DNA of 23,898 nt from Promethearchaeota archaeon (GTDB taxonomy: Archaea; Asgardarchaeota; Lokiarchaeia; Sigyniarchaeales; SOKP01), in assembly GCA_016839745.1 (NCBI GenBank), contig JAEOTS010000134.1:1-23898 (forward strand), read 5' to 3'. The position numbers and the translations under genes are program-made. Shown here piece after piece: positions 3,832-20,648 of this stretch; the stretch's first letter is position 1; each line of letters starts with the position of its first letter. The notes under the pieces were generated by a model. It was not told where the DNA came from and made no database searches. It saw nothing but the letters and a program-made list of their open reading frames with translations.

Positions 3832-6800
3832 TTATACTGCAACTTCAGTAAGGTAAAGAACAACTAATAACAGAGCCCAAATAATCGTTAGGATTATTAA
3901 AATTATTGTTGTATAAAACCTCCACTTGATTGAAATCTTCTGTTTTTTCTCGATTCTATATATATAAATTGCCAATATTGCTCCTAATATAATTATGGAA
4001 GAAAGTATCAGAATTATACCAAAAAGAAAAGATTCAATGTAAGGTATTATTAATGCGAACACAAAAACTGTAAAACTTATCCAAAGAGTTATAAAACGTT
4101 GCATTCTATTCTTAAAAATCTTATCTATGTCGTCAGTTTTCTTGGGTGGGAGTAAAGAAATAAAAATTCCAGAATTTGCTAATGCTAATAGGGTTGCATG
4201 ATCCCCTCCTAGCAAAGGTATTAAACCAATTTCTTTAGAAAAAACTATTCCCACTGTTATACCCGCAAACACACAAAGAATAATTTCTATAACTCTAAGG
4301 TTATTTTTTAAGAAATTGATAAATGAATAATATACTCTTAGAAGAGAATTCTTTAGCTTGACATATATCAATCTTAAATTGTCTAGTATATTATTGAAGA
4401 AAGCCTTCAATTCTTCCAGCATAAAAACAAATAGGTATAACCAAATTCCTATAAAAATCCATGAGAAACTCCATCCAGATAATGATATATTAAAAGTAAT
4501 TATGCTTAACAACAAGAACAAAACGAGAGAATAGAGGAAAGAGCTAATTTTCTTACGTTTAAATGGTTTAAATAACGCTAAATTTATAATCATAAAGAAT
4601 AACAAAGAAAGGCTAAGATTAAGAATTAAATTGGGATTTACAAAGATTTCTAATGCTAAAAATATATCAAAAGATAATAAAACTTCAGTTAGAATGAAAC
4701 TAACAATCCTTAGATTCTTCCTAATCTTTTCAGTTACAGATTTAATGTTGTTGTCTAAGAATGTCAATCCAAGTAAAATAATAAATGACAAAAGAACTAA
4801 GTTTAGCGAAATAAAGAAATCAAGGCTAAGATAATATAATGGCCAAGTAATTAAATTAAGATAAACTAATCTCACAAGTGAATCTTTAATTTTAGATTGG
4901 TTTGACTTGATAAAATCCCAATCTTTCAATAATCTAAATAGGTAGGCGATTTGTATTATTAGGAGAAATATAATTATCGGTATTATCTGAACAAAGAATA
5001 TGGAAATCCAATCAAGATAGAATAAGAATGAAAATCCAATTAAAATTATCCACGAAAAGCTTATAAAGAAATTCGAGGCCTTTCCTAAAAACTTTAAAGC
5101 ATATTTATCAAATAACGCTAGTAAATGTGTGGTCAGGCTTAAAATCAAGACAATTAAATGAAATTCAAACCCAAAAAGTACTAAAGTATTGAGAATGCTA
5201 CCTAAAAGTAGAAAATAGACACCCCATCCTAATATATTCTGTCTTAAATTCTTCCATTTTTCAAATGAAGTCAATTTATCAGGATTAAACTTCCGCCTAA
5301 TATCGAAATATGAATAATTCGTGTAAAATTGCATTAAAATCGTTAAAAACGCTATTAAAACTAGAGAAAGCATAGAATCACTAAATATCCTATATAAAAT
5401 TATAAAAAGGATCCAAGAGATATTGATAAAACTAAAAGTATGAACTATTTCCATATATCCTTCCTTAAGACGCTTAATAGCATAAATTTCTAATATGCTT
5501 ATCAAGAATAACACAATCTGGGAAAACAATAAGCTTTCATAGAGGGCAAAGAATAACTGAAATAAGCCTAAAAACAAAAGAGAGGCTTCTAGATAAATGC
5601 TAAATATAATAAAAGAATAAATTTGCTTTATATTTTTCTTCCATTTCTCACTTCTAGTGAGTTTTCCTGAAAGATAAATTGTATAAGATGTGAAAATCGT
5701 TTCAGATAATAAAACTAAGATAATCCTGAATAAATCAAGAAGACTAAATATAGTGAAAAAAGATACCCAAAATACCGCAAAAAAGATTTGAAAGAAAATA
5801 AAGGCGCACAATAAAATACTTTTTTTAAGTTTGATTTCGATAGTACGATTTATTAATCCGTTTAGTACTAGCATCAATAAAGAAAAAATCATTCCAGAGA
5901 AACTTAATGAAGGATACCCATCTAATAATGGATTATATGTTATTAATAAACTACTTAACAATAATGAAATATATAAGCTAACCACGATGAAAATTGAATT
6001 TAATAGAATGTTCTGTATCTGGTTTCTAACTTTCCTTATTTTACTCGCTTCATATTGAGTTAATTTTTCAATGTAATAAGAGAGAGCATAGAGCGTATAA
6101 AATTGTAAAATCAAGAGTATAACTAGATTTAGTACTAATAAAGATGCATCTATCGCGATAAACTGGTTCAAAAACACGAATAGACTAATGGAAGTAATTA
6201 CATACGCTATTAAATTAAAAGCATATATGATTTTTTCGTTAACCTTCTTTATAAGGTGGATTTCGAATAAGGTTGAGATAAAAAATATTATTATGGAAAT
6301 TAAAACTGTTTCAAAGAAGCCAAAATCCACAGCTTCACTAATCAAACTAAAACTCAGAAGTCCAATCTCAAAATGTAATAACAATGAGAGAACCGATTCA
6401 GCTCTAAGCAAACCAAAACCTTTAAGATCCTCTTGAATTTTAACTTTTTTACTATACAACTTACATGGAATTTGGAATAAGGCAGTATAAAGTATCAAAG
6501 ATAATAAAATTATAATAACCGGAGATTGAAATAAAAGATTTAACACCATAAATTGTAAAACTATTAAGATTATTGGAATTGGAAAGGCATACCACAATAT
6601 AAATCGGTATTCGTAGAGTATTGATCTTAGTAAAATTGAATTTACTAAGATAAAAACAGCAATTGCTAAGTAAATAAAGCCAGGTAGGAAATAGTATGTT
6701 AAATAAGAAAGCGTTAAAGATACACCAAGTGATAGAATCGTTAAGGGAATTATTTTTTTTATCGGGATAATCATCCTAAACTTGTTAAATACGAAAAGAG

Positions 6801-9800
6801 AGCCCCCAAATACCGCTATCGCTAGAAATATTGAAAAAAGTTCGAGACCAGGAATCATAATAAGTGTGAAATAAGTGAACAAAGAGAAGTTTATAACCAG
6901 TATTGTGGAGATTAAGGTATTAAAAAAAGTCTTGTTGAGTTTGAGGAGTCTTGATGAAAATAAACTCAAAGCAAGTGTTATAAAAGCAATATTTATTGAT
7001 ATAGGTAAATTTTTGATTATCGCATTTATAATGCTAAAAATTGTAAGAAAAATTCCAACTAAAGAAATAAAATAAGATCCTACGAGAATTATGTTTTTGA
7101 TGTTCTTAAGATTAGGGAAAAATGACAAAATGAGAAAGAATATACCTAATATTATTAGATTGATTGATAAATTAATCTCTAGCGGTAGAAGGATTGCAGA
7201 GAATAAAGTGAAGAGGAAAGTAATGTTTACAACTATATAGAATAACCAAAGAATAGTTATAATCTTCCATAATCTTAATCGATAAATTATTGGTACTAGC
7301 AAAGAAATAGCGAAAACGACAAACACGATATTGGTTATCAGCACATTATTACTAAACACGTTTTGACTAAACCAATATAAGAAAAACAAACTGAAACTCC
7401 AAACTATTATGAGTACTTGAGAAAAATGCTTTTTAATCCACGAATACCAAAATGGTAATGAAAGTAGTATACAAATTACAAAGGATATTATGAAAGAGCC
7501 ATTAATGCTTAGTATGTCAAAGAAATTTAGAGCATTCGTATAAATATTGACATTTGTAAATATCTCATTAATGAGATAGAAATTAACAAAAGGGACTAAT
7601 ATCCAAAGTCTCCAACCAGTTTTCCAAATTGCCCAGGAAAACTTCCAGTAATAAATTCCGATTGATATGTAAAATAGAGCTATTCCAATATTAATCGTTA
7701 TTAAAAACAAGAAGGTATCCCATAATGGCAGAGAAAGTAGAGCATTTAAGAAGAAATACATAAACACAGGAAAAGAAATTGTGTAAATTGAAAATGCGAT
7801 ATAAAAGCTTATTTTTCTGAACTTTTCAGGTGTTTTATTGTATGTTCCTACATAGGCAATCCCTGTAATGGTTGAAGTTAATGTGAAAGTTAGTATTGGA
7901 TTAAAGTTCATAAAGATAGGGTTATTAAAGAGGATAAAATAGGATAGATAACTCATAAAACTAAAAGTTAGTAGTAGTACGCATGGTCTAATAAACCATT
8001 TATAGCGCTCATCTTTTTGTCTATAGAAAAAATTTCCAGTTAATATTAGGAATATAAATAAAGAAATTGATATGTTGTAAATCAAAGGTATACCTGTATT
8101 TATAATTAATAACAAAAGCGAGGTTATGGAGATTAAAGCGTATAGCGTAAATTTTTCGACCACATTTGTTTTCTTCATGTTGAATACGATTGATAAAAAT
8201 AATACTAAAATCATAGAAAAACCATAAATGAAAAAATAAACTGTGAAATAAGAAAAACTAAATGTGGGAATTAGCATATAGAGATTTAATGTGAAAATCG
8301 CTTTAACAAATATAAACCAACTAAGAGAGATATAAAATATTATACGAAATATAAAATTGCGATTCCTATTAGATATAAATAAGAAAAGCGGCATTAAGAA
8401 GAGTATATAAGAAAAGTATTCGAAAATAATTGGAAATATAGAAAAAAGAGAAAATAAAACCAGTAATGAACCGCTGAATATTTTTATCATTCTAAATTCT
8501 GATGCTCTTTCAATTATAGTATCAAATTTAAGTATATAGTAATTAAGAAACAGATATATAGCACATAGTACAAGTATGATTTGGAGTGCCTGATTCGAAC
8601 TAAAAAATGGAATATTGGAAGAAAATATCCAGAATAAATCAACAAAAATAATTATTAAAGCTAAAGAAAAAAGATAGAAAGTGAGTTTCTTAGATAATCT
8701 CAATGACTCATCAGAAATGGAAAATATCCTTCTTAAATAATAAATAGTAATCGGGCTCATAAAGATGATGATTAGAAGTGGTAATACTAACCTTAAAAGG
8801 ATAGAAATTTGAATAGGCAGAATAAAAATATAAAGAATAATAAGCAATTTAATAAAAATCCAAGCTGAAATTTCGAAAATACTTTTAATTTTTAAGAAAT
8901 CTACTTTAAATAAATATCCACAAACTGCTGAAATGATTAGATATATCGACATGAATATACCTAAATTAGTAATTGTAATTAAGAGTAAAGATTCTGGAAG
9001 ATACAATAGAGAGAGTAAGCTATGAGACGGTATTATTAGTGCTAAAATAGCAGCTATAGAAGTTATAATGGCAAAAAAAGAGATATTCTTGGTGTACTCG
9101 TATATTTTATAGATTTTATAATAATCAAATTTACTTACATCGTATTCGAAAATTCTTTGTTTTAGGTTTTCTAGCAGAATTAAAATGGCAAGGTTTATAA
9201 TGAAAAAAGTCAGACAAGAACAACTTATATTTAGCCAAAAATTGGTTGTTATAGAATCTATTAAACTATAAACCTTTAAGGCAATAAGCACAGATATCGT
9301 TATCCAGATAACAATCTGGGAGGTTTTAAGAGAAACAATACGATTTTCTTTGAGCTTATATTTATCAAAAAGAAATTCCAAGAATCTCAAAAATCCAAAA
9401 AATAAAAATATTGTAGTAAGGATTATGAAATAATAATCAATAACCATTCCAAATCTGATTAGCTCCAATCCTATTATAGTTGGAAGGGACATAATTAACG
9501 CAGATATTAACAGACTATCTACCAATAACATTTTTTCTACAAGTTTACTGAAAACCTTCTTGCTTGAGGAATAAAACAATGGAAGTAGCATTAGTAAGCT
9601 AAAAACTAACAGAGGAATAACAAATACAAGAACCGAGTTATTAGTTAATAAATATATGTAGTAAGAGCTTAGAACGCTTGTAAAACTTAAAGCTAAGATA
9701 TTAATCCCAATTGCACTCTTATCTGAAAAAATTATTCTATTTTTAGATAAAATATTGATGATAAAGCAAATTAGAATAGTCGAGAAGTACGCTGATAAAA

Positions 9801-11970
9801 CGGGCTCTATTAGAATTAGAAAAATTGAAAACAAAATGGCATAAACTTCTAAAATTATAAAGATATTGACCATAATAGAATACTTTTTAAAAGATTCACC
9901 TGATAGTAGGTTTAATTTTGCTCCAAACTTAAAAATATAATAAGAAACCACGGTAATAAAAAGAATATTAATCAAAATTAACACAATTAAAAAGAAATTA
10001 AAGAAATTAAAAATAACAAAAAAATTCAAGGCGAATATAGCCAGAGATATAAGAATAGAGCAATAAAAATGATATTTTAAGAAAGTAATAGGATTTAAAA
10101 CAGTTTTTTTTGACAAATAAAAAATAGGAATGTATGAAAGAATGCAAACAATAATAAGGGGTATGAAATAAATAAAGAAAGTTCCAACTGTGAAGATAAC
10201 GCTATAATATCCGGCAATAAATATACCAAAATAAAATGTGATTGTGTTTAGAATCATTGCCGGAAATTTAGGAAATAATTTTTCTTCCCTTGATGATATG
10301 TGAAAAATAATGCTAATTATAGATAGTGATAAGAAAGACGATATGAACTCATCTAAAGGAAGAAAAGTGGTAAAAACAGTAAAAAGCAGGACAAAAATTT
10401 CTATTATGATAGGATAACTTAATATGTTTAAGATAAACTTCGAGGACGATTCTTTTAACCGATTTATTTTCTTGCCAAACAAGATGAGAAGAACAAGACA
10501 AAATGTAAAGAATAGAATGTTTAATAGCGTTCCTAATATGAAATCGGCACTAAAATATATGTTAATGATAAAAAAGTTTAAAACAAAAATTAAAACCATT
10601 AGCACCCATGAGGAAGTGTAGCTATATAATGCTAGAACTTTAGGTTTTATGACATTCTCCTTATAGAGATAATACAATGGGGCATATAATAAAAAGCAGA
10701 AAATAACAGGAACAACAAGATAAAAATAGAAATAGTCAATATTAGCTTCTATAAAATAAAATCCAACAACATATATGTCAAATGCGAAAATGAAAGATGT
10801 TAATATTAATTTCATTTTTCTTGAAATTAATTTCTCGTACGGAGATAAGAGATTAAAAATCACTCCAATAATAGAAAGTGAAAGAAATATAGCAATAACC
10901 GGGTTAAATATAAAAACTATATTGAAAATTCCATAAAATAAGAAGAAAATTTCAAGCAAAAGAGCATAAAAATATATTTTAGCGATATTTAAGAAGGTAT
11001 TTTCTTCGATTTTTTTTATTACAGTTCCAAATTTTAGGTTTAATAGCGATAAAATCGTAAAAAAGATTAAATCAAATAATAAGATTACATAAGTATTCCA
11101 ATAAAGGGCTATTATTATAAGGAACATGGAGGAAATTAAAAACCAGAAAGTAACATAGGTGTAAGATAAACTTACTTCACGAGAGAATACTTTTATAATG
11201 TAATTTAATAATACAAATGATAGAAAAGCAGCTGAAATTAAAATCGTTGATAAAAATAAATCTCTTTGCAATAATTCAGGAACACCCAAAACGATATTTT
11301 TTAAGTTAACTAGTATAAACCAGTTCAATTCAATTAACAAAAATACGAATATTACGCAAAAATTAAAAAATCTCCAAGGTTTTGCATATAAATGAGCTCG
11401 TGCGTATAAGAAATAAAACGAAATTAATGTAATTATCAAAACAATAATTGAATGGATCAAAGTTTCAGAAATTAAAATCAAAATTGGATCTAATGTAAAA
11501 TTAATGTATACGAATTCAACAAGTGGAAAGAACGAATATAAAATTATGGTAAAACTAGTAACTGCAAGAATATTTTGTATGACAAGAACATTTTTCTCTA
11601 TAAAATAGCCTAGTTTCATAAAAATTTGAAAAATGAAATATAGAGATATACTAAAAATTATAAATTGTATATTAATGAGCGTTATTCCAAGGTAAGTTGG
11701 GGATATCCAAAATGCCACTAAAGCTAAGATTACTAAGCAATTAATCAGATATATATATCTACTATAAACTTTAAGAGTAAAATTCAATTTTTCTTCGATG
11801 TATGTAATAATGAACATTACTGGTAAGGAAAGGAAAAATACAACCAGAGTATTATTCAACAGAGAAATTAAGAGAGTTGCTAGAATTAAAAGAACCGAGA
11901 CAACGAAATTTAGCTTTTGATAGCTTCTATTATTCTCTAGATCAACTTCTTCAGAATTACTCGAATTCAT
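3832..11970 (-). CDS. Giant polytopic membrane protein (~2,710 aa) with internal TM repeats, function unknown
   Basis: 8.1-kb open frame, hydrophobic over almost its whole length with short Lys-rich loops. ATG 11970 (MNSSNSEE) follows a GAGG RBS and overlaps the end of the upstream gene; the track's longest start is 12000. Confidence 0.9.
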   Translation of the reverse strand: MNSSNSEEVDLENNRSYQKLNFVVSVLLILATLLISLLNNTLVVFFLSLPVMFIITYIEEKLNFTLKVYSRYIYLINCLVILALVAFWISPTYLGITLINIQFIIFSISLYFIFQIFMKLGYFIEKNVLVIQNILAVTSFTIILYSFFPLVEFVYINFTLDPILILISETLIHSIIVLIITLISFYFLYARAHLYAKPWRFFNFCVIFVFLLIELNWFILVNLKNIVLGVPELLQRDLFLSTILISAAFLSFVLLNYIIKVFSREVSLSYTYVTFWFLISSMFLIIIALYWNTYVILLFDLIFFTILSLLNLKFGTVIKKIEENTFLNIAKIYFYALLLEIFFLFYGIFNIVFIFNPVIAIFLSLSIIGVIFNLLSPYEKLISRKMKLILTSFIFAFDIYVVGFYFIEANIDYFYFYLVVPVIFCFLLYAPLYYLYKENVIKPKVLALYSYTSSWVLMVLIFVLNFFIINIYFSADFILGTLLNILFFTFCLVLLILFGKKINRLKESSSKFILNILSYPIIIEIFVLLFTVFTTFLPLDEFISSFLSLSIISIIFHISSREEKLFPKFPAMILNTITFYFGIFIAGYYSVIFTVGTFFIYFIPLIIVCILSYIPIFYLSKKTVLNPITFLKYHFYCSILISLAIFALNFFVIFNFFNFFLIVLILINILFITVVSYYIFKFGAKLNLLSGESFKKYSIMVNIFIILEVYAILFSIFLILIEPVLSAYFSTILICFIINILSKNRIIFSDKSAIGINILALSFTSVLSSYYIYLLTNNSVLVFVIPLLVFSLLMLLPLFYSSSKKVFSKLVEKMLLVDSLLISALIMSLPTIIGLELIRFGMVIDYYFIILTTIFLFFGFLRFLEFLFDKYKLKENRIVSLKTSQIVIWITISVLIALKVYSLIDSITTNFWLNISCSCLTFFIINLAILILLENLKQRIFEYDVSKFDYYKIYKIYEYTKNISFFAIITSIAAILALIIPSHSLLSLLYLPESLLLITITNLGIFMSIYLIISAVCGYLFKVDFLKIKSIFEISAWIFIKLLIILYIFILPIQISILLRLVLPLLIIIFMSPITIYYLRRIFSISDESLRLSKKLTFYLFSLALIIIFVDLFWIFSSNIPFFSSNQALQIILVLCAIYLFLNYYILKFDTIIERASEFRMIKIFSGSLLVLFSLFSIFPIIFEYFSYILFLMPLFLFISNRNRNFIFRIIFYISLSWFIFVKAIFTLNLYMLIPTFSFSYFTVYFFIYGFSMILVLFLSIVFNMKKTNVVEKFTLYALISITSLLLLIINTGIPLIYNISISLFIFLILTGNFFYRQKDERYKWFIRPCVLLLTFSFMSYLSYFILFNNPIFMNFNPILTFTLTSTITGIAYVGTYNKTPEKFRKISFYIAFSIYTISFPVFMYFFLNALLSLPLWDTFLFLITINIGIALFYISIGIYYWKFSWAIWKTGWRLWILVPFVNFYLINEIFTNVNIYTNALNFFDILSINGSFIISFVICILLSLPFWYSWIKKHFSQVLIIVWSFSLFFLYWFSQNVFSNNVLITNIVFVVFAISLLVPIIYRLRLWKIITILWLFYIVVNITFLFTLFSAILLPLEINLSINLIILGIFFLILSFFPNLKNIKNIILVGSYFISLVGIFLTIFSIINAIIKNLPISINIAFITLALSLFSSRLLKLNKTFFNTLISTILVINFSLFTYFTLIMIPGLELFSIFLAIAVFGGSLFVFNKFRMIIPIKKIIPLTILSLGVSLTLSYLTYYFLPGFIYLAIAVFILVNSILLRSILYEYRFILWYAFPIPIILIVLQFMVLNLLFQSPVIIILLSLILYTALFQIPCKLYSKKVKIQEDLKGFGLLRAESVLSLLLHFEIGLLSFSLISEAVDFGFFETVLISIIIFFISTLFEIHLIKKVNEKIIYAFNLIAYVITSISLFVFLNQFIAIDASLLVLNLVILLILQFYTLYALSYYIEKLTQYEASKIRKVRNQIQNILLNSIFIVVSLYISLLLSSLLITYNPLLDGYPSLSFSGMIFSLLMLVLNGLINRTIEIKLKKSILLCAFIFFQIFFAVFWVSFFTIFSLLDLFRIILVLLSETIFTSYTIYLSGKLTRSEKWKKNIKQIYSFIIFSIYLEASLLFLGLFQLFFALYESLLFSQIVLFLISILEIYAIKRLKEGYMEIVHTFSFINISWILFIILYRIFSDSMLSLVLIAFLTILMQFYTNYSYFDIRRKFNPDKLTSFEKWKNLRQNILGWGVYFLLLGSILNTLVLFGFEFHLIVLILSLTTHLLALFDKYALKFLGKASNFFISFSWIILIGFSFLFYLDWISIFFVQIIPIIIFLLIIQIAYLFRLLKDWDFIKSNQSKIKDSLVRLVYLNLITWPLYYLSLDFFISLNLVLLSFIILLGLTFLDNNIKSVTEKIRKNLRIVSFILTEVLLSFDIFLALEIFVNPNLILNLSLSLLFFMIINLALFKPFKRKKISSFLYSLVLFLLLSIITFNISLSGWSFSWIFIGIWLYLFVFMLEELKAFFNNILDNLRLIYVKLKNSLLRVYYSFINFLKNNLRVIEIILCVFAGITVGIVFSKEIGLIPLLGGDHATLLALANSGIFISLLPPKKTDDIDKIFKNRMQRFITLWISFTVFVFALIIPYIESFLFGIILILSSIIILGAILAIYIYRIEKKQKISIKWRFYTTIILIILTIIWALLLVVLYLTEVAV

Positions 11971-12919
11971 CAATTTCAAACCTCTTGAGTATTTTGTCAT
12001 AAAATGTACTTACATACAATCTGATTTTGAAGTAGAATAATAAGAAGATGAGAGATAATATCGAAATAGTAATGATTTCAATAATCTGATGTTGAATACC
12101 CGAGTAAATATAAATAAAGGTTATTACTAATGGCATTTGAATCAATAATGCGAACATTAAGCTTAATAATGAATTTACAAACTTTCTCTTATATTTAGTC
12201 AACTCCAATAGAAATTCTTTGCTATTTTTAGTTAACTTTGATAAATTCTTTATGTTTTTCATAGTTGTAAGTCGGGAAATAAGATAAAATACTAAATTCG
12301 AAATAAGTGGAAACAACCAAGAAACTTTAGTATAGAATGTATAAGAGAGAAATATGATATGAATGATATAATTGACAATAACTATGAGATTATATGGTTG
12401 TTTAATCCATTGAGAAAATGGTGTTTCATGTTTGTATTTCTCTTCATTATAGTCAAAATTGTCTATAGGTTGAAAGAAATAGTAATAATACACAATATTG
12501 TAAAGTATGCTAAATGATATTAAAGGTAAAAGCTCAAATTTTTTACTTGGAGTAAAAAAAACAAAAATAGGAGGAGGGAAAATAATGAAAATAGGAGTAA
12601 CTATCAAAGCTAAGATCGTAATTAAGAAAATAATATTAATTCTAGCAGATAGGTTGTTTTTTTTATTCAAGAAAAATGGATTATTTCTATATTTATCAAA
12701 AGGTTTGTAGAAAAACAATAATACGAACATGAATGTTATAACTGATAAACCAATTGAGACATAAAGGTCTTTTCCAATAAAGAAATAAATGAAAAAACCT
12801 ACTACAGCGACTAAAGAAGGTACTATGATTAAATAGAAACTAAACCACCAAATCTTCCAGAGCGATTCGGTGACTTTTTCAATTTTATCTTCAGAACTTC
12901 CGTTTTTATTAGATTTCAT
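11957..12919 (-). CDS. Hypothetical integral membrane protein (about 8 TM), first gene of a putative operon with the giant membrane protein
   Basis: Multiple hydrophobic segments; the 3' end overlaps the start of the giant ORF. Confidence 0.8.
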   Translation of the reverse strand: MKSNKNGSSEDKIEKVTESLWKIWWFSFYLIIVPSLVAVVGFFIYFFIGKDLYVSIGLSVITFMFVLLFFYKPFDKYRNNPFFLNKKNNLSARINIIFLITILALIVTPIFIIFPPPIFVFFTPSKKFELLPLISFSILYNIVYYYYFFQPIDNFDYNEEKYKHETPFSQWIKQPYNLIVIVNYIIHIIFLSYTFYTKVSWLFPLISNLVFYLISRLTTMKNIKNLSKLTKNSKEFLLELTKYKRKFVNSLLSLMFALLIQMPLVITFIYIYSGIQHQIIEIITISILSLIFLLFYFKIRLYVSTFYDKILKRFEIDEFE

Positions 12920-13069
12920 TTTCCCAATAAAGATATTTCCTCTACTCTGGGATAAATAGAAAATATCCTTAAAAAATGTTTAGATGAATAAAGGGGTAAA
13001 ATCAAATAAAATACGGTAAAAATATAACTTAATTTATAAATTATGGTAGGATATAATAAAAAACAGAAT

Positions 13070-14392
13070 TTAACAAAACTCTGGAAGATAATTTTTTTGC
13101 AATTCCTTCATTTCTTCAAATATTTTGTCAGCCATTTCGAAACTTCCTACATTGGGATCAATCGCTAAAGCTGCTATTGCTAAGTCCTTCGATTTTTGAA
13201 GGATAGCTTCAACACATAGATCTTGGATAGTTGCTTCAATTCGAAGTAAAGCGGCAATATTAGTTGGTAATTTACCCCATTTAACTCCATTTACTCCCTT
13301 CTTATTGACTATTACGGGACACTCAATTACAAGATCCTTAGGTAGATTTTCGATGATGTTGTCATTTGGAATATTAACTGCACTTTCATAAGAATTACTG
13401 TCAGCAATAATTGCTTCGATAATTGGAATTGCTCTTTCTACTGAGGTTCCTTTATAGAACATTCCTTTTTTGAAATACCTTCCTTCTTTTAGACGCTTAT
13501 AGTTTCTCATGATACGTTTATATGTCCTCTTACCACCTTTTTCAGCAAAGTCAATCCAATCTGTCATATCAATAGTTTCAGTAAATTCTTCACCAAACCG
13601 TAAGTATTCACCAAGATGATTATCCCCTACGTACGGAAAATAGCCAAATCTTTTGAAAACTTCAAATGTTAATGAAGAAAATTCGAACCTTTCTTGATGT
13701 TGTTTAAAATACTCTGGAGCTATCTTGTTAAATTTCGGCATTAAATCCATTCCGGAAGAGATTTCCTCAATCCCCATTAAAAATCCAAAATGATTTAATC
13801 CATAAGGTTTTAGTTTTAAATTCTCAAATTTTATTTTGAGCATTTGAGGTAAATGGAATGTCATAGCTCCAATTTGATGACAAAGGCCTATAAATTTAAG
13901 ATTCGGAACTGTCCTTTTAATAGCTAAACATACCCTCGCCATTGGATTAGAAAAATTTATAAAAAAAGCATCAGGACATATATCGTTCACATCTTTTACA
14001 ATTTCCAAAATAGGAGGAATTACTCTAAATGCGTGCATTGTTCCCCCTGGTCCTCCGCATTCACCTAATATTTGAATCGACCCATATTTTCTTGGGATTT
14101 CGTAATCTTCTCTCCATAATTTATAACGATCTCCAACCTCTATTGAGCTTATAATAAAGTCTGCTCCATTCAATGCCTTTTTACGGTCTGTAGTGCGAAT
14201 AATATTAAATTCATTATTATGTATCTTGTTTTCAGCTTCGACTAATTCAAACATGACTTCCAAATGTTCTTTGTTGATATCATGTAGCACTATTGTTGAA
14301 CCTTGTAAAAGATTGCTCTGGTAAAGATCTAACAAAGAAGATGGCCCAAAAGAGGTGCTTCCAGCCCCAATTAGAACGATTTTTTTGTCCAT
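13070..14392 (-). CDS. Glycoside hydrolase family 4 (NAD+/Mn2+-dependent alpha-glucosidase/alpha-galactosidase type)
   Basis: KIVLIGAGS Rossmann motif, GECGGPGG, INFSNPMA, GLCH (metal-binding Cys), GLNH, DNHLGEY, ALAIDP. Confidence 0.93.
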   Translation of the reverse strand: MDKKIVLIGAGSTSFGPSSLLDLYQSNLLQGSTIVLHDINKEHLEVMFELVEAENKIHNNEFNIIRTTDRKKALNGADFIISSIEVGDRYKLWREDYEIPRKYGSIQILGECGGPGGTMHAFRVIPPILEIVKDVNDICPDAFFINFSNPMARVCLAIKRTVPNLKFIGLCHQIGAMTFHLPQMLKIKFENLKLKPYGLNHFGFLMGIEEISSGMDLMPKFNKIAPEYFKQHQERFEFSSLTFEVFKRFGYFPYVGDNHLGEYLRFGEEFTETIDMTDWIDFAEKGGKRTYKRIMRNYKRLKEGRYFKKGMFYKGTSVERAIPIIEAIIADSNSYESAVNIPNDNIIENLPKDLVIECPVIVNKKGVNGVKWGKLPTNIAALLRIEATIQDLCVEAILQKSKDLAIAALAIDPNVGSFEMADKIFEEMKELQKNYLPEFC

Positions 14393-14503
14393 TATCCTAT
14401 AATTTGAAGTAATTTAGATGGTTGCGTTACATCTATATTATTTAATTAAAAGTATAATTCGTTTAATAGGTTATCAAACAGTTCTCTTTAGAATATTAAA
14501 GCC

Positions 14504-14553
14504 AATGGGAAAAAATACCCACAATATTTATTAGTGTACACTCTTTATATATT
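14504..14553 (+). promoter_or_regulatory. Putative archaeal promoter of cassette 1
   Basis: AATGGGA (14504), TATA-like ATTTATTAGT (14526-14535), TTTATATATT (14544); same elements and spacing as 15141-15190. Confidence 0.55.
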
Positions 14554-14565
14554 GTTAATAATGAA

Positions 14566-14752
14566 TTTTTCGCGACATAATACTGATTCATGGGTAGGCT
14601 GCAAGAGCGCCATTATTCCCACAGTATTATGAAGAGAATAAATCCTTATACCTTCTCTTTTTCTTTTTAATTGTTAGGATTTATTCTCTGCGCATAATGT
14701 CTATCAATTTTCAAGAAAAAGTGGGATAAGGGTTTAATTCTTGACGCAAAAA
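14566..14752 (+). ncRNA. Predicted structured RNA / 5' leader, cassette 1
   Basis: Perfect inverted repeats: CATAATACTG 14576-85 / CAGTATTATG 14622-31 (10 bp); AGAGAATAAATCCT 14633-46 / AGGATTTATTCTCT 14676-89 (14 bp); TCAAGAA 14711-17 / TTCTTGA 14738-44 (7 bp). Confidence 0.6.
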
Positions 14753-14774
14753 TCAAAAATCAAAAATCAAAAAT
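14747..14774 (+). repeat. Tandem heptamer (CAAAAAT)x4
   Basis: Four exact copies directly abutting the GGAGGTGA RBS at 14775. Confidence 0.95.
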
Positions 14775-14790
14775 GGAGGTGAAAAAAGAA

Positions 14791-14967
14791 TTGGCAGATA
14801 ATAGAGAATCTGATCCCATATTGGAGTATTATAAAGATTGGAGTTCTGATCTTGCGCCTATTATGATGTCATTTGACATCTCAGATGCCTATCCTGGTAG
14901 GATTGAAAGTGAAGACCAGAAAAAAATAGCTTATCTGAGACGTAAATATCAAAAACTATCAATATAA
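14791..14967 (+). CDS. Small protein A, 58 aa (MADNRESDPILEYYKDWSSDLAPIMMSFDISDAYPGRIESEDQKKIAYLRRKYQKLSI)
   Basis: GGAGGTGA RBS at 14775-82, 8 nt before TTG 14791. The track's ATG at 14773 overlaps the RBS and is in the same frame. T-rich terminator-like run follows. Confidence 0.7.
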   Translation: MADNRESDPILEYYKDWSSDLAPIMMSFDISDAYPGRIESEDQKKIAYLRRKYQKLSI

Positions 14968-14997
14968 TTTTTATTTTTTTCTATTTATTTTTTTCTA
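14968..14997 (+). terminator. Oligo-T archaeal terminator-like tract
   Basis: Several runs of T immediately after the stop codon of small protein A. Confidence 0.5.
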
Positions 14998-15140
14998 TAA
15001 TCTATTGACTGTACGAGCTAAAAGTTCGGAAAGCTTATATTTAAACAGCTTCTATGCCAATAAGCTTGATTTATATTCAATTTTAGATAATATTAAAATT
15101 GGGGGTTTTAAAGTTTTCATAATTATTTGAGTCTTTAACA

Positions 15141-15190
15141 AATGGGAGCTAATTGTGAAACATTTAAATAGTACCATCGTTTTATATATT
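15141..15190 (+). promoter_or_regulatory. Putative archaeal promoter of cassette 2
   Basis: AATGGGA (15141), TTTAAATAGT (15163-72), TTTATATATT (15181); the 40-nt offset between the first and last motifs is identical to cassette 1. Confidence 0.55.
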
Positions 15191-15195
15191 CTAAT

Positions 15196-15403
15196 GATCT
15201 TAAATATTACTACTAAATATTCAATTGTAAGAGTTATAGGTCTTTTATTAGTTGTGGTAGTAGTAGTATTATAGATGAGAGCCGATCCTTTTCGATCTTC
15301 TTTTTAATCTTTTCTTGGATATGCTCTCTCATCAAAGAATCTAAATTAAATTGAGATCTTAATGGATTCCGGCACCTCAGAAGAATAAAAAAAATGGAGG
15401 TGA
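15196..15403 (+). ncRNA. Predicted structured RNA / 5' leader, cassette 2
   Basis: AATATTACTACTA 15203-15 / TAGTAGTAGTATT 15258-70 (13 bp, one G-U); GATGAGAG 15274-81 / CTCTCATC 15326-33; GAATC 15337-41 / GATTC 15365-69; anti-SD CACCTC 15373-78 / GAGGTG 15397-402. Confidence 0.6.
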
Positions 15404-15407
15404 AAAA

Positions 15408-15587
15408 ATGGAAAAAGAAGTTCTTGATAAACTTGAAAGTCAGATTGCCTTAGAAAATAATTCGATTTCTATTAAGGAGGAAAACAAACATTCTGACGAA
15501 AGTACATTTTGGAAATACCTAGATTATTCAAACTGGATTCCAGGAGAAATTGAAATTGAGGAAGAAATTACTAAAGATTATGATTAG
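15408..15587 (+). CDS. Small acidic protein B, 59 aa (MEKEVLDKLESQIALENNSISIKEENKHSDESTFWKYLDYSNWIPGEIEIEEEITKDYD)
   Basis: Manually translated; GGAGGTGA RBS at 15396-403 just before ATG 15408; shares a motif with small protein A. Missing from the ORF track. Confidence 0.7.
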   Translation: MEKEVLDKLESQIALENNSISIKEENKHSDESTFWKYLDYSNWIPGEIEIEEEITKDYD

Positions 15588-15631
15588 TGGAATAGAGATT
15601 CTATTTAGAAATACTCTGCAGCTATTGTGTT

Positions 15632-16807
15632 CTAATTGATTATACTTTCTATTCTTTCTAAGGCTGCTTTTATTTTATCAACTGGTTGAGTTAAGGCAAA
15701 TCTCACAAATCCTTCTCCATATTTGCCAAAACCATTACCAGGTGTGAGGATTACTCCCAGATCTATTAATTTTTTCACAAAATCCATGCTATTCGTTTCT
15801 CCTTCTGGTATGTGAGTCCAGACGAAAAAAGTTGCTTTTGGTTTCTTTGTTTCCCATCCAATATTATTTAAACCCTTTACTAACACATTTCGCCTTATTT
15901 CATATGTTTTGACAGTTTCTTTTACTATTTTTGGTTTTTCTTCTGATACATATTCATCTAAACCTTTTGCCACTGCTTTTTGGATAAACCTTGGACAACC
16001 AGAGTCAATATGAGACTTAACATTTCTAATTCCTGTTATTATATCTTTATGCCCAACAGCCCAACCACATCTAAATCCCGTCATACAAAACATCTTCGAA
16101 GCGCTATTAATTTCAATGTGATTCTGATCTATTTCTAAAAGCGATGGCGCTGTGTAATCTTCATATGTAAACTCTGAATAAGGATTATCATAGACAATGA
16201 GGAACTTATAGTCCTCAGCGTAATCTGATGCTTTTTTTAGAAATTCTTTAGGTGCTATTGCTCCAGTAGGATTATTAGGGTAATTTAAATACATTATTTT
16301 AGCTTTTTTGAGTGTTCCTATATCAATGGCCTCAAAATCAGGTAAAAAATTATTTTTTTCTAATAGTGGGATTGGATGAGCGATTCCATCACAAAGTTTT
16401 GTAGCACCGTTCTCATAAACCGGATAACCTGGATTCGGGCATAACACAATATCTCCCGGGTTAATAAATGCTCTGGCGATATTAGCTACTCCTTCCTTTC
16501 CTCCGATTAAACTAGTAACTTCGTTGTTTGCATCGAAATCTAAGTTAAATCTTACTTTATACCACCTTTGGACGGCCTCTCTGAAATCTTGTTCACCCAT
16601 GCTTGTAGGATAATTCTGATTTTCGGGCTTTTTTACTTGTTTAATCATCTCGTTTATAATCAAATCGGGAGTTGTTAAATCGGGATCCCCGATACCTAAT
16701 GGAATGAAGTCAATTCCTTCCATTTTCTTTTTTTTTATTATTTGTTCAATTTCAGCAAAGATGTATACAGGCAGTTTGTTTATTCTATCAGCATATTTTA
16801 TATTAAT
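15632..16807 (-). CDS. dapL: PLP-dependent class I/II aminotransferase, LL-diaminopimelate aminotransferase-like; probable non-canonical ATT start
   Basis: LGIGDPD, GGKEG, NYPNNPTG, YDNPY, SASKMFCMTGFRCG (PLP Lys). The family-typical N-terminus (YADRINKLPVYIFAEIE) lies in frame upstream of the track's ATG 16723. Substrate specificity, and so the gene symbol, is tentative. Confidence 0.8.
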   Translation of the reverse strand: MNIKYADRINKLPVYIFAEIEQIIKKKKMEGIDFIPLGIGDPDLTTPDLIINEMIKQVKKPENQNYPTSMGEQDFREAVQRWYKVRFNLDFDANNEVTSLIGGKEGVANIARAFINPGDIVLCPNPGYPVYENGATKLCDGIAHPIPLLEKNNFLPDFEAIDIGTLKKAKIMYLNYPNNPTGAIAPKEFLKKASDYAEDYKFLIVYDNPYSEFTYEDYTAPSLLEIDQNHIEINSASKMFCMTGFRCGWAVGHKDIITGIRNVKSHIDSGCPRFIQKAVAKGLDEYVSEEKPKIVKETVKTYEIRRNVLVKGLNNIGWETKKPKATFFVWTHIPEGETNSMDFVKKLIDLGVILTPGNGFGKYGEGFVRFALTQPVDKIKAALERIESIIN

Positions 16808-20547: not shown

Positions 20548-20648
20548 AGCCTCCGACGGGAATTGAACCCGCGACCTGCAGATTACAAGTTTCAGCAATT
20601 AATCGAAGTTAATTAAATTCTGCTGCTATACCGCTAAGCCACGGAGGC
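20548..20648 (-). tRNA. tRNA-Thr(UGU) with a 29-nt intron (20591-20619); CCA not encoded
   Basis: Acceptor stem GCCTCCG/CGGAGGC plus U discriminator; anticodon stem GCAGA/TCTGC with loop CTTGTAA after intron removal; T arm GCGGG-TTCAATT-CCCGT. Confidence 0.93.

Follow-up and report, generated by a model that had tools for sequence, protein, structure and literature searches.

Two small open reading frames (ORFs) on the plus strand, here called microproteins A and B, lie between a minus-strand GH4 glycosidase gene and a minus-strand aminotransferase gene on contig JAEOTS010000134.1 of a Promethearchaeota archaeon, and both carry the same 14-residue motif. All coordinates are given in the numbering of the window, which is the whole stretch of 23,898 nt that was analysed. 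A and B are very probably diverged paralogues, with the motif as the signature of their family. Judged from its sequence, each copy appears to be a self-contained cassette consisting of a TATA-like box, a leader of ~190-210 nt with a conserved hairpin, a strong Shine-Dalgarno (SD) sequence GGAGGTGA and the small ORF. The features of the locus are listed below.

14544-14551, plus strand: TTTATATA, TATA-box-like element of cassette A (sequence, regular expression)
14634-14688, plus strand: leader hairpin of cassette A (GAGAATAAATCC...GGATTTATTCTC, pyrimidine-rich loop), 14/16 arm complementarity
14775-14782, plus strand: SD sequence GGAGGTGA of A, overlapping ATG 14773
14791-14967, plus strand: microprotein A, class I, 58 residues from the most likely start TTG 14791, stop TAA at 14965-14967
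14872-14913, plus strand: motif in A, FDISDAYPGRIESE, residues 28-41 (F-D-I-S-D-A-Y-P-G-R-I-E-S-E)
14968-14994, plus strand: three oligo-T runs (T5, T7, T7) directly 3' of the stop of A, putative terminator
15181-15188, plus strand: TTTATATA, TATA-box-like element of cassette B (regular expression; same octamer as in cassette A)
15273-15333, plus strand: leader hairpin of cassette B (GATGAGAGCCGATCC...GGATATGCTCTCTCATC), alignable with the A-type hairpin
15396-15403, plus strand: SD sequence GGAGGTGA of B, with the ATG 4 nt further on
15408-15587, plus strand: microprotein B, 59 residues, stop TAG at 15585-15587, shorter than its 68-residue orthologues
15519-15560, plus strand: motif in B, LDYSNWIPGEIEIE, residues 38-51 (L-D-Y-S-N-W-I-P-G-E-I-E-I-E)
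13070-14392, minus strand: GH4 glycosidase gene, divergent from A (Pfam Glyco_hydro_4 and 4C)
15632-16723, minus strand: DapL-type class I/II aminotransferase gene, convergent with B (Pfam Aminotran_1_2)

The two small genes and their cassettes

A and B are real genes under purifying selection. Open orthologues of A were found in 23 of the 24 genomes of the genus that were sampled, and orthologues of B in 10 of 42 genomes of the genus, every one ~0.45-0.6 kb downstream of A on the same strand; in the seven loci retrieved, the two starts were ~0.63 kb apart. The median pairwise ratio of nonsynonymous to synonymous substitution rates (dN/dS) was 0.25 for A (195 pairs) and 0.38 for B (21 pairs), neither being near 1, and the motif was conserved among the orthologues. 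The sequence GGAGGTGA, with at most one base changed, preceded all orthologues examined (23/23 for A and 7/7 for B), and the B ORF was open, with its ATG and a perfect SD sequence present, in 7/7 aligned orthologues. Conservation of A extended over the whole 58 residues, the N-terminal ILDYYKDW included; in B, 23 columns were invariant, with the whole FWKYLD and PGEIE blocks among them.

An earlier note on this DNA, made by a model from the letters and a list of ORFs, had started A at ATG 14773. This codon belongs to ATGGAGGTGA, inside the SD sequence of A. In G004, a one-base deletion breaks the frame from ATG 14773 and the ORF from the TTG stays open, and in the clade of G021, G017, G009 and G005 an in-frame TGA lies inside the SD sequence and an ATG stands at the TTG-equivalent codon. 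Because the upstream frame is broken in the one and interrupted in the other, the orthologues indicate that A most likely starts at TTG 14791 and comprises 58 residues. About half of the A orthologues have no ATG, GTG or TTG between GGAGGTGA and the conserved N-terminal region, apart from a GTG within the SD sequence; 11 of the A orthologues have an ACG ~8 nt after GGAGG, at the place where G018 has ATG, and in G022 an extra A in a poly-A run puts a TGA in frame. The orthologues without a usual start could use a non-canonical ACG start or the GTG in the SD sequence, or could contain errors in poly-A runs.

The B orthologues (68 residues) end in DYDWWKRKSIKK. In this genome the first Trp codon (TGG) is replaced by TAG, so that B lacks the basic tail here. 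The orthologues run nine residues further (WWKRKSIKK), and a second in-frame TAG is found in this genome (window 15585-15611). The B tails of G008 and G012 were shortened independently, indicating that the tail was lost repeatedly; in all, 3/7 aligned B orthologues are truncated, this genome included.

A hairpin with a pyrimidine-rich loop was found 75-100 nt before the start of A, of B and of most members from other genera that were examined. Of its 10 pairs, 3 show compensatory changes, and at alignment columns 17/64 an A-U pair is replaced by G-C in six of six B leaders. The question raised earlier, whether family members carry the same leader RNA, is thus answered with yes for most members: the leader is present in most members of the other genera examined, and the hairpin was not evident in four class II (see below) or divergent loci (G092, G093, G085 and G155). 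The whole cassette was duplicated and not the ORF alone. A regular-expression scan of the genome for leader hairpins returned the A copy as the sole convincing one, the expression being too strict even for B and the scan therefore uninformative on other cassettes, and an Rfam search of the whole window with E-value thresholds returned nothing in 14400-15640. The TTTATATA boxes are read here as promoters, on the assumption that they follow what is generally known of archaeal promoters, and the oligo-T runs after A are likewise taken to be a terminator, presumably of the archaeal oligo-T type. The 5' arm of the hairpin of A also contains a tiny upstream frame, ATG-AAG-AGA-GAA-TAA (window 14620-14640). 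In most leaders of genus g22 (loci L061-L078), ATT stands in place of the ATG of this frame and the hairpin is retained, so that reading the frame as a leader peptide would need a non-ATG start or would not apply family-wide.

The layout of the cassettes bears on the suggestion that the motif is a nascent-chain arrest sequence, in which case the ORFs would be cis-acting leader or arrest peptides that stall the ribosome to control a downstream gene. Among known systems are the arrest peptides SecM, TnaC and MifM and the leader peptides of the trp/his type. A and B resemble such peptides in being small ORFs with a conserved internal Pro-Gly at a locus with putative regulatory RNA structure. Here, however, the structured RNA precedes the ORF and does not follow it, and A is followed by three oligo-T runs. 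In most genomes the single copy, or B where it is the last copy, is convergent with the aminotransferase gene, and the next gene downstream is never on its own strand. Moreover, all 58 residues are conserved, unlike in arrest peptides, the protein is predicted to fold, and many members of genus g22 do without the Pro-Gly. An arrest function is therefore regarded as highly improbable.

The shared motif and the homology of A and B

The earlier note was right about the motif itself: the peptides at 14872-14913 and 15519-15560 align without gaps, with 7 of 14 residues identical (D, S, P, G, I, E and E). BLASTP of A against B gave no alignment, and the DNA alignment of the two cassettes was uninformative taken alone. 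Among 2000 composition-preserving shuffles, 33 reached 7/14 identities and 19 scored as high as the observed segment (38 with BLOSUM62); taken by itself, the match between A and B is only modestly beyond chance. What makes the motif convincing is its conservation across orthologues and across the family. It falls in the most conserved columns of the A orthologue set as well as of the B orthologue set, and its columns are the best conserved of the family, with the following values in A numbering for a sample of 175 members that is weighted to A-like sequences: D29 92%, S31 90%, P35 87%, G36 89%, I/L38 97%, E39 97%, E41 96% and D/E42 98%. The pattern is the same in all three classes (I, II and B). 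The regular expression for the motif matched 128/175 members, and in this genome, where the pattern search of six-frame segments proposed earlier was run, both the expression and the family hidden Markov model (HMM) matched A and B only, out of 28,996 segments.

At the conserved residues of the motif, all four Gly codons (GGT/GGA/GGG/GGC) are in use, Ser is encoded by AGC/AGT or by TCA and Glu by GAA or GAG, and the shared P, G and E are encoded by different codons in A and B. Such synonymous variation indicates that selection acts on the protein and not on the RNA. This bears on the view that the motif-coding stretch of the mRNA forms base pairs with the leader or some other RNA and that the peptide motif is a by-product, a view with which the conserved RNA structure upstream at the locus would agree; with synonymous sites free to vary at conserved residues and with the codons differing between A and B, it is scarcely credible.

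A profile of A was searched against 1.84 billion representative proteins. Besides A-like proteins, which together with A form class I, the search retrieved small proteins of a second class (class II, 58-114 residues) with E-values of 7e-7 to 4e-4, whose C-terminal end reads ...[FM]D[IL]S[DE]xxPGEIEIEDEI[KR]MGYL[WR]xKY. As in the bridging sequence ...DISDIKPGEIEIEDEIKMGYLWKKY..., class II joins the B-like PGEIEIE-E-EI to the A-like MxYLRxKY tail. Profile comparison with hhalign gave P=1.5e-10 for B against class II (59 columns, probability 97%), P=6e-22 for class I against class II (68 columns, probability 99%) and P=7e-6 for B against all of class I (35 columns, probability 84%). After removal of the 14 motif residues, the C-terminal flank of B (eEInkDy-W) still matched that of class II (DEikmgYLw) with P=6.5e-4, and the N-terminal flank was weakly similar (P=0.07). 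These profile comparisons point to homology of A and B over their full length by way of class II. The description of the two microproteins as otherwise unrelated is thus not supported, given P=1.5e-10 and P=6e-22 and the common design of the cassettes.

With homology through class II and a common cassette design, the motif is best explained as inherited and not as an independently acquired linear motif. The latter explanation, which was the first choice of the earlier note, holds that two unrelated disordered microproteins each gained a short linear motif that binds the ribosome, RNA polymerase or a protease. It would agree with the motif being the best-conserved stretch of both proteins, with the failure of BLASTP to see the pair, and with structure models of low global confidence, which allow folding on a partner. 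Against it stand the full-length homology, the similarity of the flank outside the motif, the leader and SD design common to both cassettes, and the helical models (mean local confidence 68-78, see below); the motif also occurs in no other ORF of the genome and so shows no sign of having spread over unrelated proteins. This explanation is considered very improbable, although the acidic motif as such may bind a partner.

A maximum-likelihood tree was built from 61 members. Class I, with all A sequences included, formed one clade with 99/99 support from which B was excluded, and B stood on a branch of length 1.97 amid poorly resolved class II rows. The B-bearing genomes all fall in one subclade of A. 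In hhalign, this subclade matched B no more strongly than all of class I did, so a recent duplication is not shown.

Distribution of the family and its genomic neighbourhood

The family is unnamed, with members of ~58-68 residues, and within what was searched appears restricted to a single GTDB family of Lokiarchaeia (Promethearchaeia). The family HMM matched 100/134 genomes of the GTDB family of the window, in 10/13 genera, and 0/26 genomes from the six other families of the class. A word-index search gave 242 clusters, the named ones of which are "hypothetical protein" entries from metagenome-assembled genomes, mostly labelled Lokiarchaeota or Promethearchaeota, and no Pfam domain was present in any of the 242. 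The 47 genome loci obtained by searching with the A alignment were mostly labelled Promethearchaeota/Promethearchaeia, with a few other submitter labels.

The signature of the family can be written as [FLM]-D-x-S-[DNE]-x2-P-G-x-[IL]-E-x-E-[DE], followed by x3-Y-L-[RW]-x-K-Y. Both parts are present in A; B retains the first, the second being degenerate in its orthologues (DYDWWKRK) and removed by the TAG in this genome. Most genomes have one copy; two or three are found only in the subclade with B and in a few more genomes. In locus L070 (G087:C263, 5025-6005), three family-like ORFs stand in tandem, the first being a full class II copy, the second a 49-aa fragment with ILEFYKNWDSNKAPLL, and the third a weak match (E=5.6e-4). 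The presence of tandem copies in G087 as well indicates that the cassette was duplicated in tandem more than once.

When A, B and 61 members were scanned with Pfam and NCBIfam, only scattered single matches below threshold appeared, and the PDB profile search with the family gave CapE at E=3.5 only. A scan of viral contigs with the B alignment produced one chance match, FWKYLDYT in a 131-aa ORF that is otherwise unlike the family. The ESM Atlas has no entry for the window's own sequence; with a family homologue as query, it returned only matches of <=0.76 to unnamed clusters, which are uninformative, and full-text literature searches found no paper on the family. The members resemble lineage-specific small proteins of the domain-of-unknown-function type in their ~60 residues, in being stand-alone genes with their own promoter-like box and strong SD sequence, in their restriction to one taxonomic family, in their helical prediction and in tandem duplication in some lineages; they differ in having no Pfam, NCBIfam or PDB counterpart and in being tied to a conserved structured leader RNA.

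The genomic address of the family is fixed. The order giant gene (minus), GH4 (minus), small protein (plus) and aminotransferase (minus) was found in 19-20/20 loci from 8 genera, GH4 and aminotransferase each adjoining the small protein in 19/20 loci of other genomes. The small gene and the aminotransferase gene are convergent, with ~45-55 nt from stop to stop. In G107 (L128) and G122 (L130) of genus g22, GH4 is lost and the small gene still adjoins the aminotransferase gene; in genus g12, the GH4 gene stands in another context and the small protein is absent; and in genus g23, a very diverged copy occupies the same slot. Six genomes of the window's genus (G015, G046, G054, G055, G041 and G003) have neither a match to A nor a close GH4 orthologue, their best GH4 matches being at the level of a 60%-identity paralogue or lower, which suggests that the whole block was lost or not assembled in these genomes. 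As the six lack both, gain and loss seem to affect the whole region at once.

These neighbours also bear on the proposal that the motif is the core, or the recognition sequence, of a ribosomally synthesized and post-translationally modified peptide (RiPP). The small size of the ORFs and the conserved acidic segment would fit a RiPP precursor, and B weakly matches PF05114, a RiPP enzyme family (E=0.05, 13 bits against a cut-off of 25 bits). The latter is a model of an enzyme and not of a precursor, and the match was set aside as most likely noise. The proteins contain no Cys and no signature of export or leader cleavage, and they are conserved from end to end, most strongly in the C-terminal half, with no hypervariable core. 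They are single-copy in most genomes, and the neighbours conserved in 20 loci are GH4, the aminotransferase and the giant protein, not known RiPP enzymes, with the farther neighbours clustered and unnamed. The statement of the earlier note that no modifying enzyme is adjacent is borne out by this comparison, and its proposal of a modified-peptide core hardly deserves credit.

For the neighbouring genes themselves, the GH4 gene matched an NCBIfam alpha-galactosidase subfamily below the cut-off, and the best NCBIfam match of the aminotransferase gene was LL-diaminopimelate aminotransferase, with 452 bits under a cut-off of 593 bits. A giant ORF of 2722 aa occupies window 3832-12000 on the minus strand, and relatives of this gene accompany the GH4 and small-protein locus in 15/20 loci of other genomes. 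The next ORF after it (320 aa, 11957-12919) had no Pfam or NCBIfam match. Farther away, a tRNA match (Rfam, 55 bits) lies at window 20548-20648 on the minus strand; at 101 nt it is longer than the 71-position model and therefore probably contains a tRNA intron.

Predicted structure and possible function

In the AlphaFold2 (AF2) model of A (58 aa, 61-sequence alignment), the mean predicted local distance difference test (pLDDT) was 78 and the predicted template modelling score (pTM) 0.35, with helices at residues 9-13, 23-33 and 37-57. For a 68-aa orthologue of B (48-sequence alignment), the mean pLDDT was 68 and the pTM 0.22, with helices at 2-18, 33-38 and 47-67. In the model of A, the motif runs from the end of helix 2 through the turn Y-P-G into the first part of helix 3; in that of the B orthologue, it runs from the end of helix 33-38 through the loop 39-46 into the beginning of helix 47-67. 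The parts outside the motif had been described as divergent and probably disordered, which fits poorly with similarity that is full-length through intermediates and with helices predicted on both sides of the motif at pLDDT 78 and 68, although at pTM 0.35 and 0.22 the proteins may still be partly disordered. In the C-terminal helix of A, the first seven residues have a charge of ~-2.2 and the rest ~+5.8 (the basic end YLRKKYxK).

The family consists of small, probably helical proteins encoded in autonomous cassettes with a leader. The combined interpretation, in which A and B are paralogues, the motif is the family signature and the motif forms the junction of helix 2 and helix 3, is judged somewhat likely. 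In this arrangement, D-x-S-D would end helix 2, the Pro-Gly would make the turn, and I-E-x-E-D would open the long C-terminal helix.

Such a topology also brings to mind a divergent helix-loop-helix for Ca2+/Mg2+, i.e., an EF-hand or pseudo-EF-hand acting as a minimal ion sensor. The predicted topology and the acidic nature of the most invariant residues fit, and a Gly is followed by a hydrophobic residue two positions on and an acidic residue four further; this G-x-[IL]-x3-[DE] spacing and the 14-residue span D29-D42 recall EF-hand and S100-type loops. However, the 12-residue loop pattern of PROSITE PS00018, D-x-[DNS]-x-[DENSTG]-[DNQGHRK]-x-[LIVMC]-x3-[DE], matched 0/175 members, as did the loose DxDxDGxIxxxE, and the Pfam EF-hand models matched 0/61 members at E<=10. 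No EF-hand was matched in the PDB by sequence or by fold, though weak matches may have been filtered from these searches. A Pro stands at the would-be ligand 5, AF2 puts D29-A33 within helix 2 and not in a loop, and the motif of the family is single and unpaired. An ion-binding loop of this kind is thus very unlikely.

Several observations weigh against the combined interpretation of paralogy and helix junction. Many members of genus g22 have Ser-Glu or Asn-Glu in place of Pro-Gly (FSESLEAED, FNENIENVD), indicating that the turn is not strictly required; these members still keep [IL]-E-x-E-D, and the near-universal part is limited to the acidic [IL]-E-x-E-[DE] and the upstream D. The low pTM values (0.35 and 0.22) make the packing of the helices uncertain, and the protein may, according to the models, fold only on a partner. 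No solved structure rose above background, and no fold is therefore assigned: Foldseek on the PDB gave no match for the model, the best Z in a wide search with VIA-align was 3.8, to generic long helices or coiled coils, and hmmsearch of PDB sequences reached E=3.5 at best. The direct hhalign comparison of the A profile (23 orthologues) with the B profile (7) was moderate (P=1.4e-4, 32 columns, probability 52%). B may be a retained old paralogue, a recent copy that diverged rapidly, or a transfer from a class II lineage. Finally, the RNA evidence is a weak hint at transcription, as the runs were picked for holding this stretch and DNA carry-over is possible: read-length contigs from two metatranscriptome libraries fall on 14637-14789, 15100-15284, 15357-15507 and 15550-15756, with the contig on 15357-15507 free of mismatches. 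In the same libraries, the flanking gene bodies within 13000-16800 were uncovered, save for a 34-nt partial match at 13650-13683, and uncovered parts are not evidence of silence. The contigs on 15100-15284, which come from both libraries, start 5' of the TATA-like box in cassette B; they could result from read-through from A past the oligo-T runs, from antisense transcription or from DNA carry-over.

The divergence of B leads to a further possibility, namely that A is functional and B a decaying duplicate, in which the motif is merely the part that evolves most slowly and has no functional meaning. The confinement of B to one subclade (10/42), its higher dN/dS (0.38 vs 0.25), its branch of 1.97, the tail stops in 3/7 aligned orthologues and the loss of the A-type N-terminal ILDYYKDW are all consistent with decay. 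Nevertheless, a dN/dS of 0.38 is well under 1, the ORF is open with ATG and perfect SD sequence in 7/7 orthologues, 23 columns are invariant, the pairing of the leader is kept through compensatory changes, and an RNA contig covers 15357-15507. A meaningless motif in a decaying B is accordingly judged unlikely.

Returning to the paralogues with a motif at the helix junction, a mechanism can be proposed from the models. The junction would fix a helical hairpin and display an invariant acidic patch (E39, E41 and D42, with D29), which would dock onto a basic surface, provided either by a partner protein or by the positively charged tail of another copy. With its amount controlled by the leader RNA, the protein would serve as a trans-acting small regulator or adaptor, and its fixed neighbours would be the obvious partner candidates. 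The docking mechanism specifically is a tentative proposal, and we lean towards doubting it. B keeps the junction, with its N-terminal half replaced and, in this genome, its basic tail lost; it may either act as a variant whose output is altered or be decaying. A bolder version, in which the family is the trans-acting output of an archaeal leader-RNA switch and the acidic junction docks on a conserved partner, is speculative and rather improbable. The DapL-type aminotransferase or the GH4 enzyme would be the most plausible partner in that case, the activity of the enzyme would respond to whatever signal the leader senses, and B, as a tail-less or altered paralogue, would compete for the same site.

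The explanation of the shared motif is thus ordinary, namely common descent, and the family, which has no Pfam, NCBIfam or PDB relative, is undescribed. To our knowledge, hardly any work exists on small proteins of Asgard archaea. The family described here is kept in ~100 species-level genomes of one Lokiarchaeial family, and it retains both its position in the genome and a structured leader that is conserved. Its compact size, strong ribosome-binding site and clear signature make it tractable for expression, structure determination and partner screens, and it offers a read-out gene for tests of the leader RNA as a regulatory switch.

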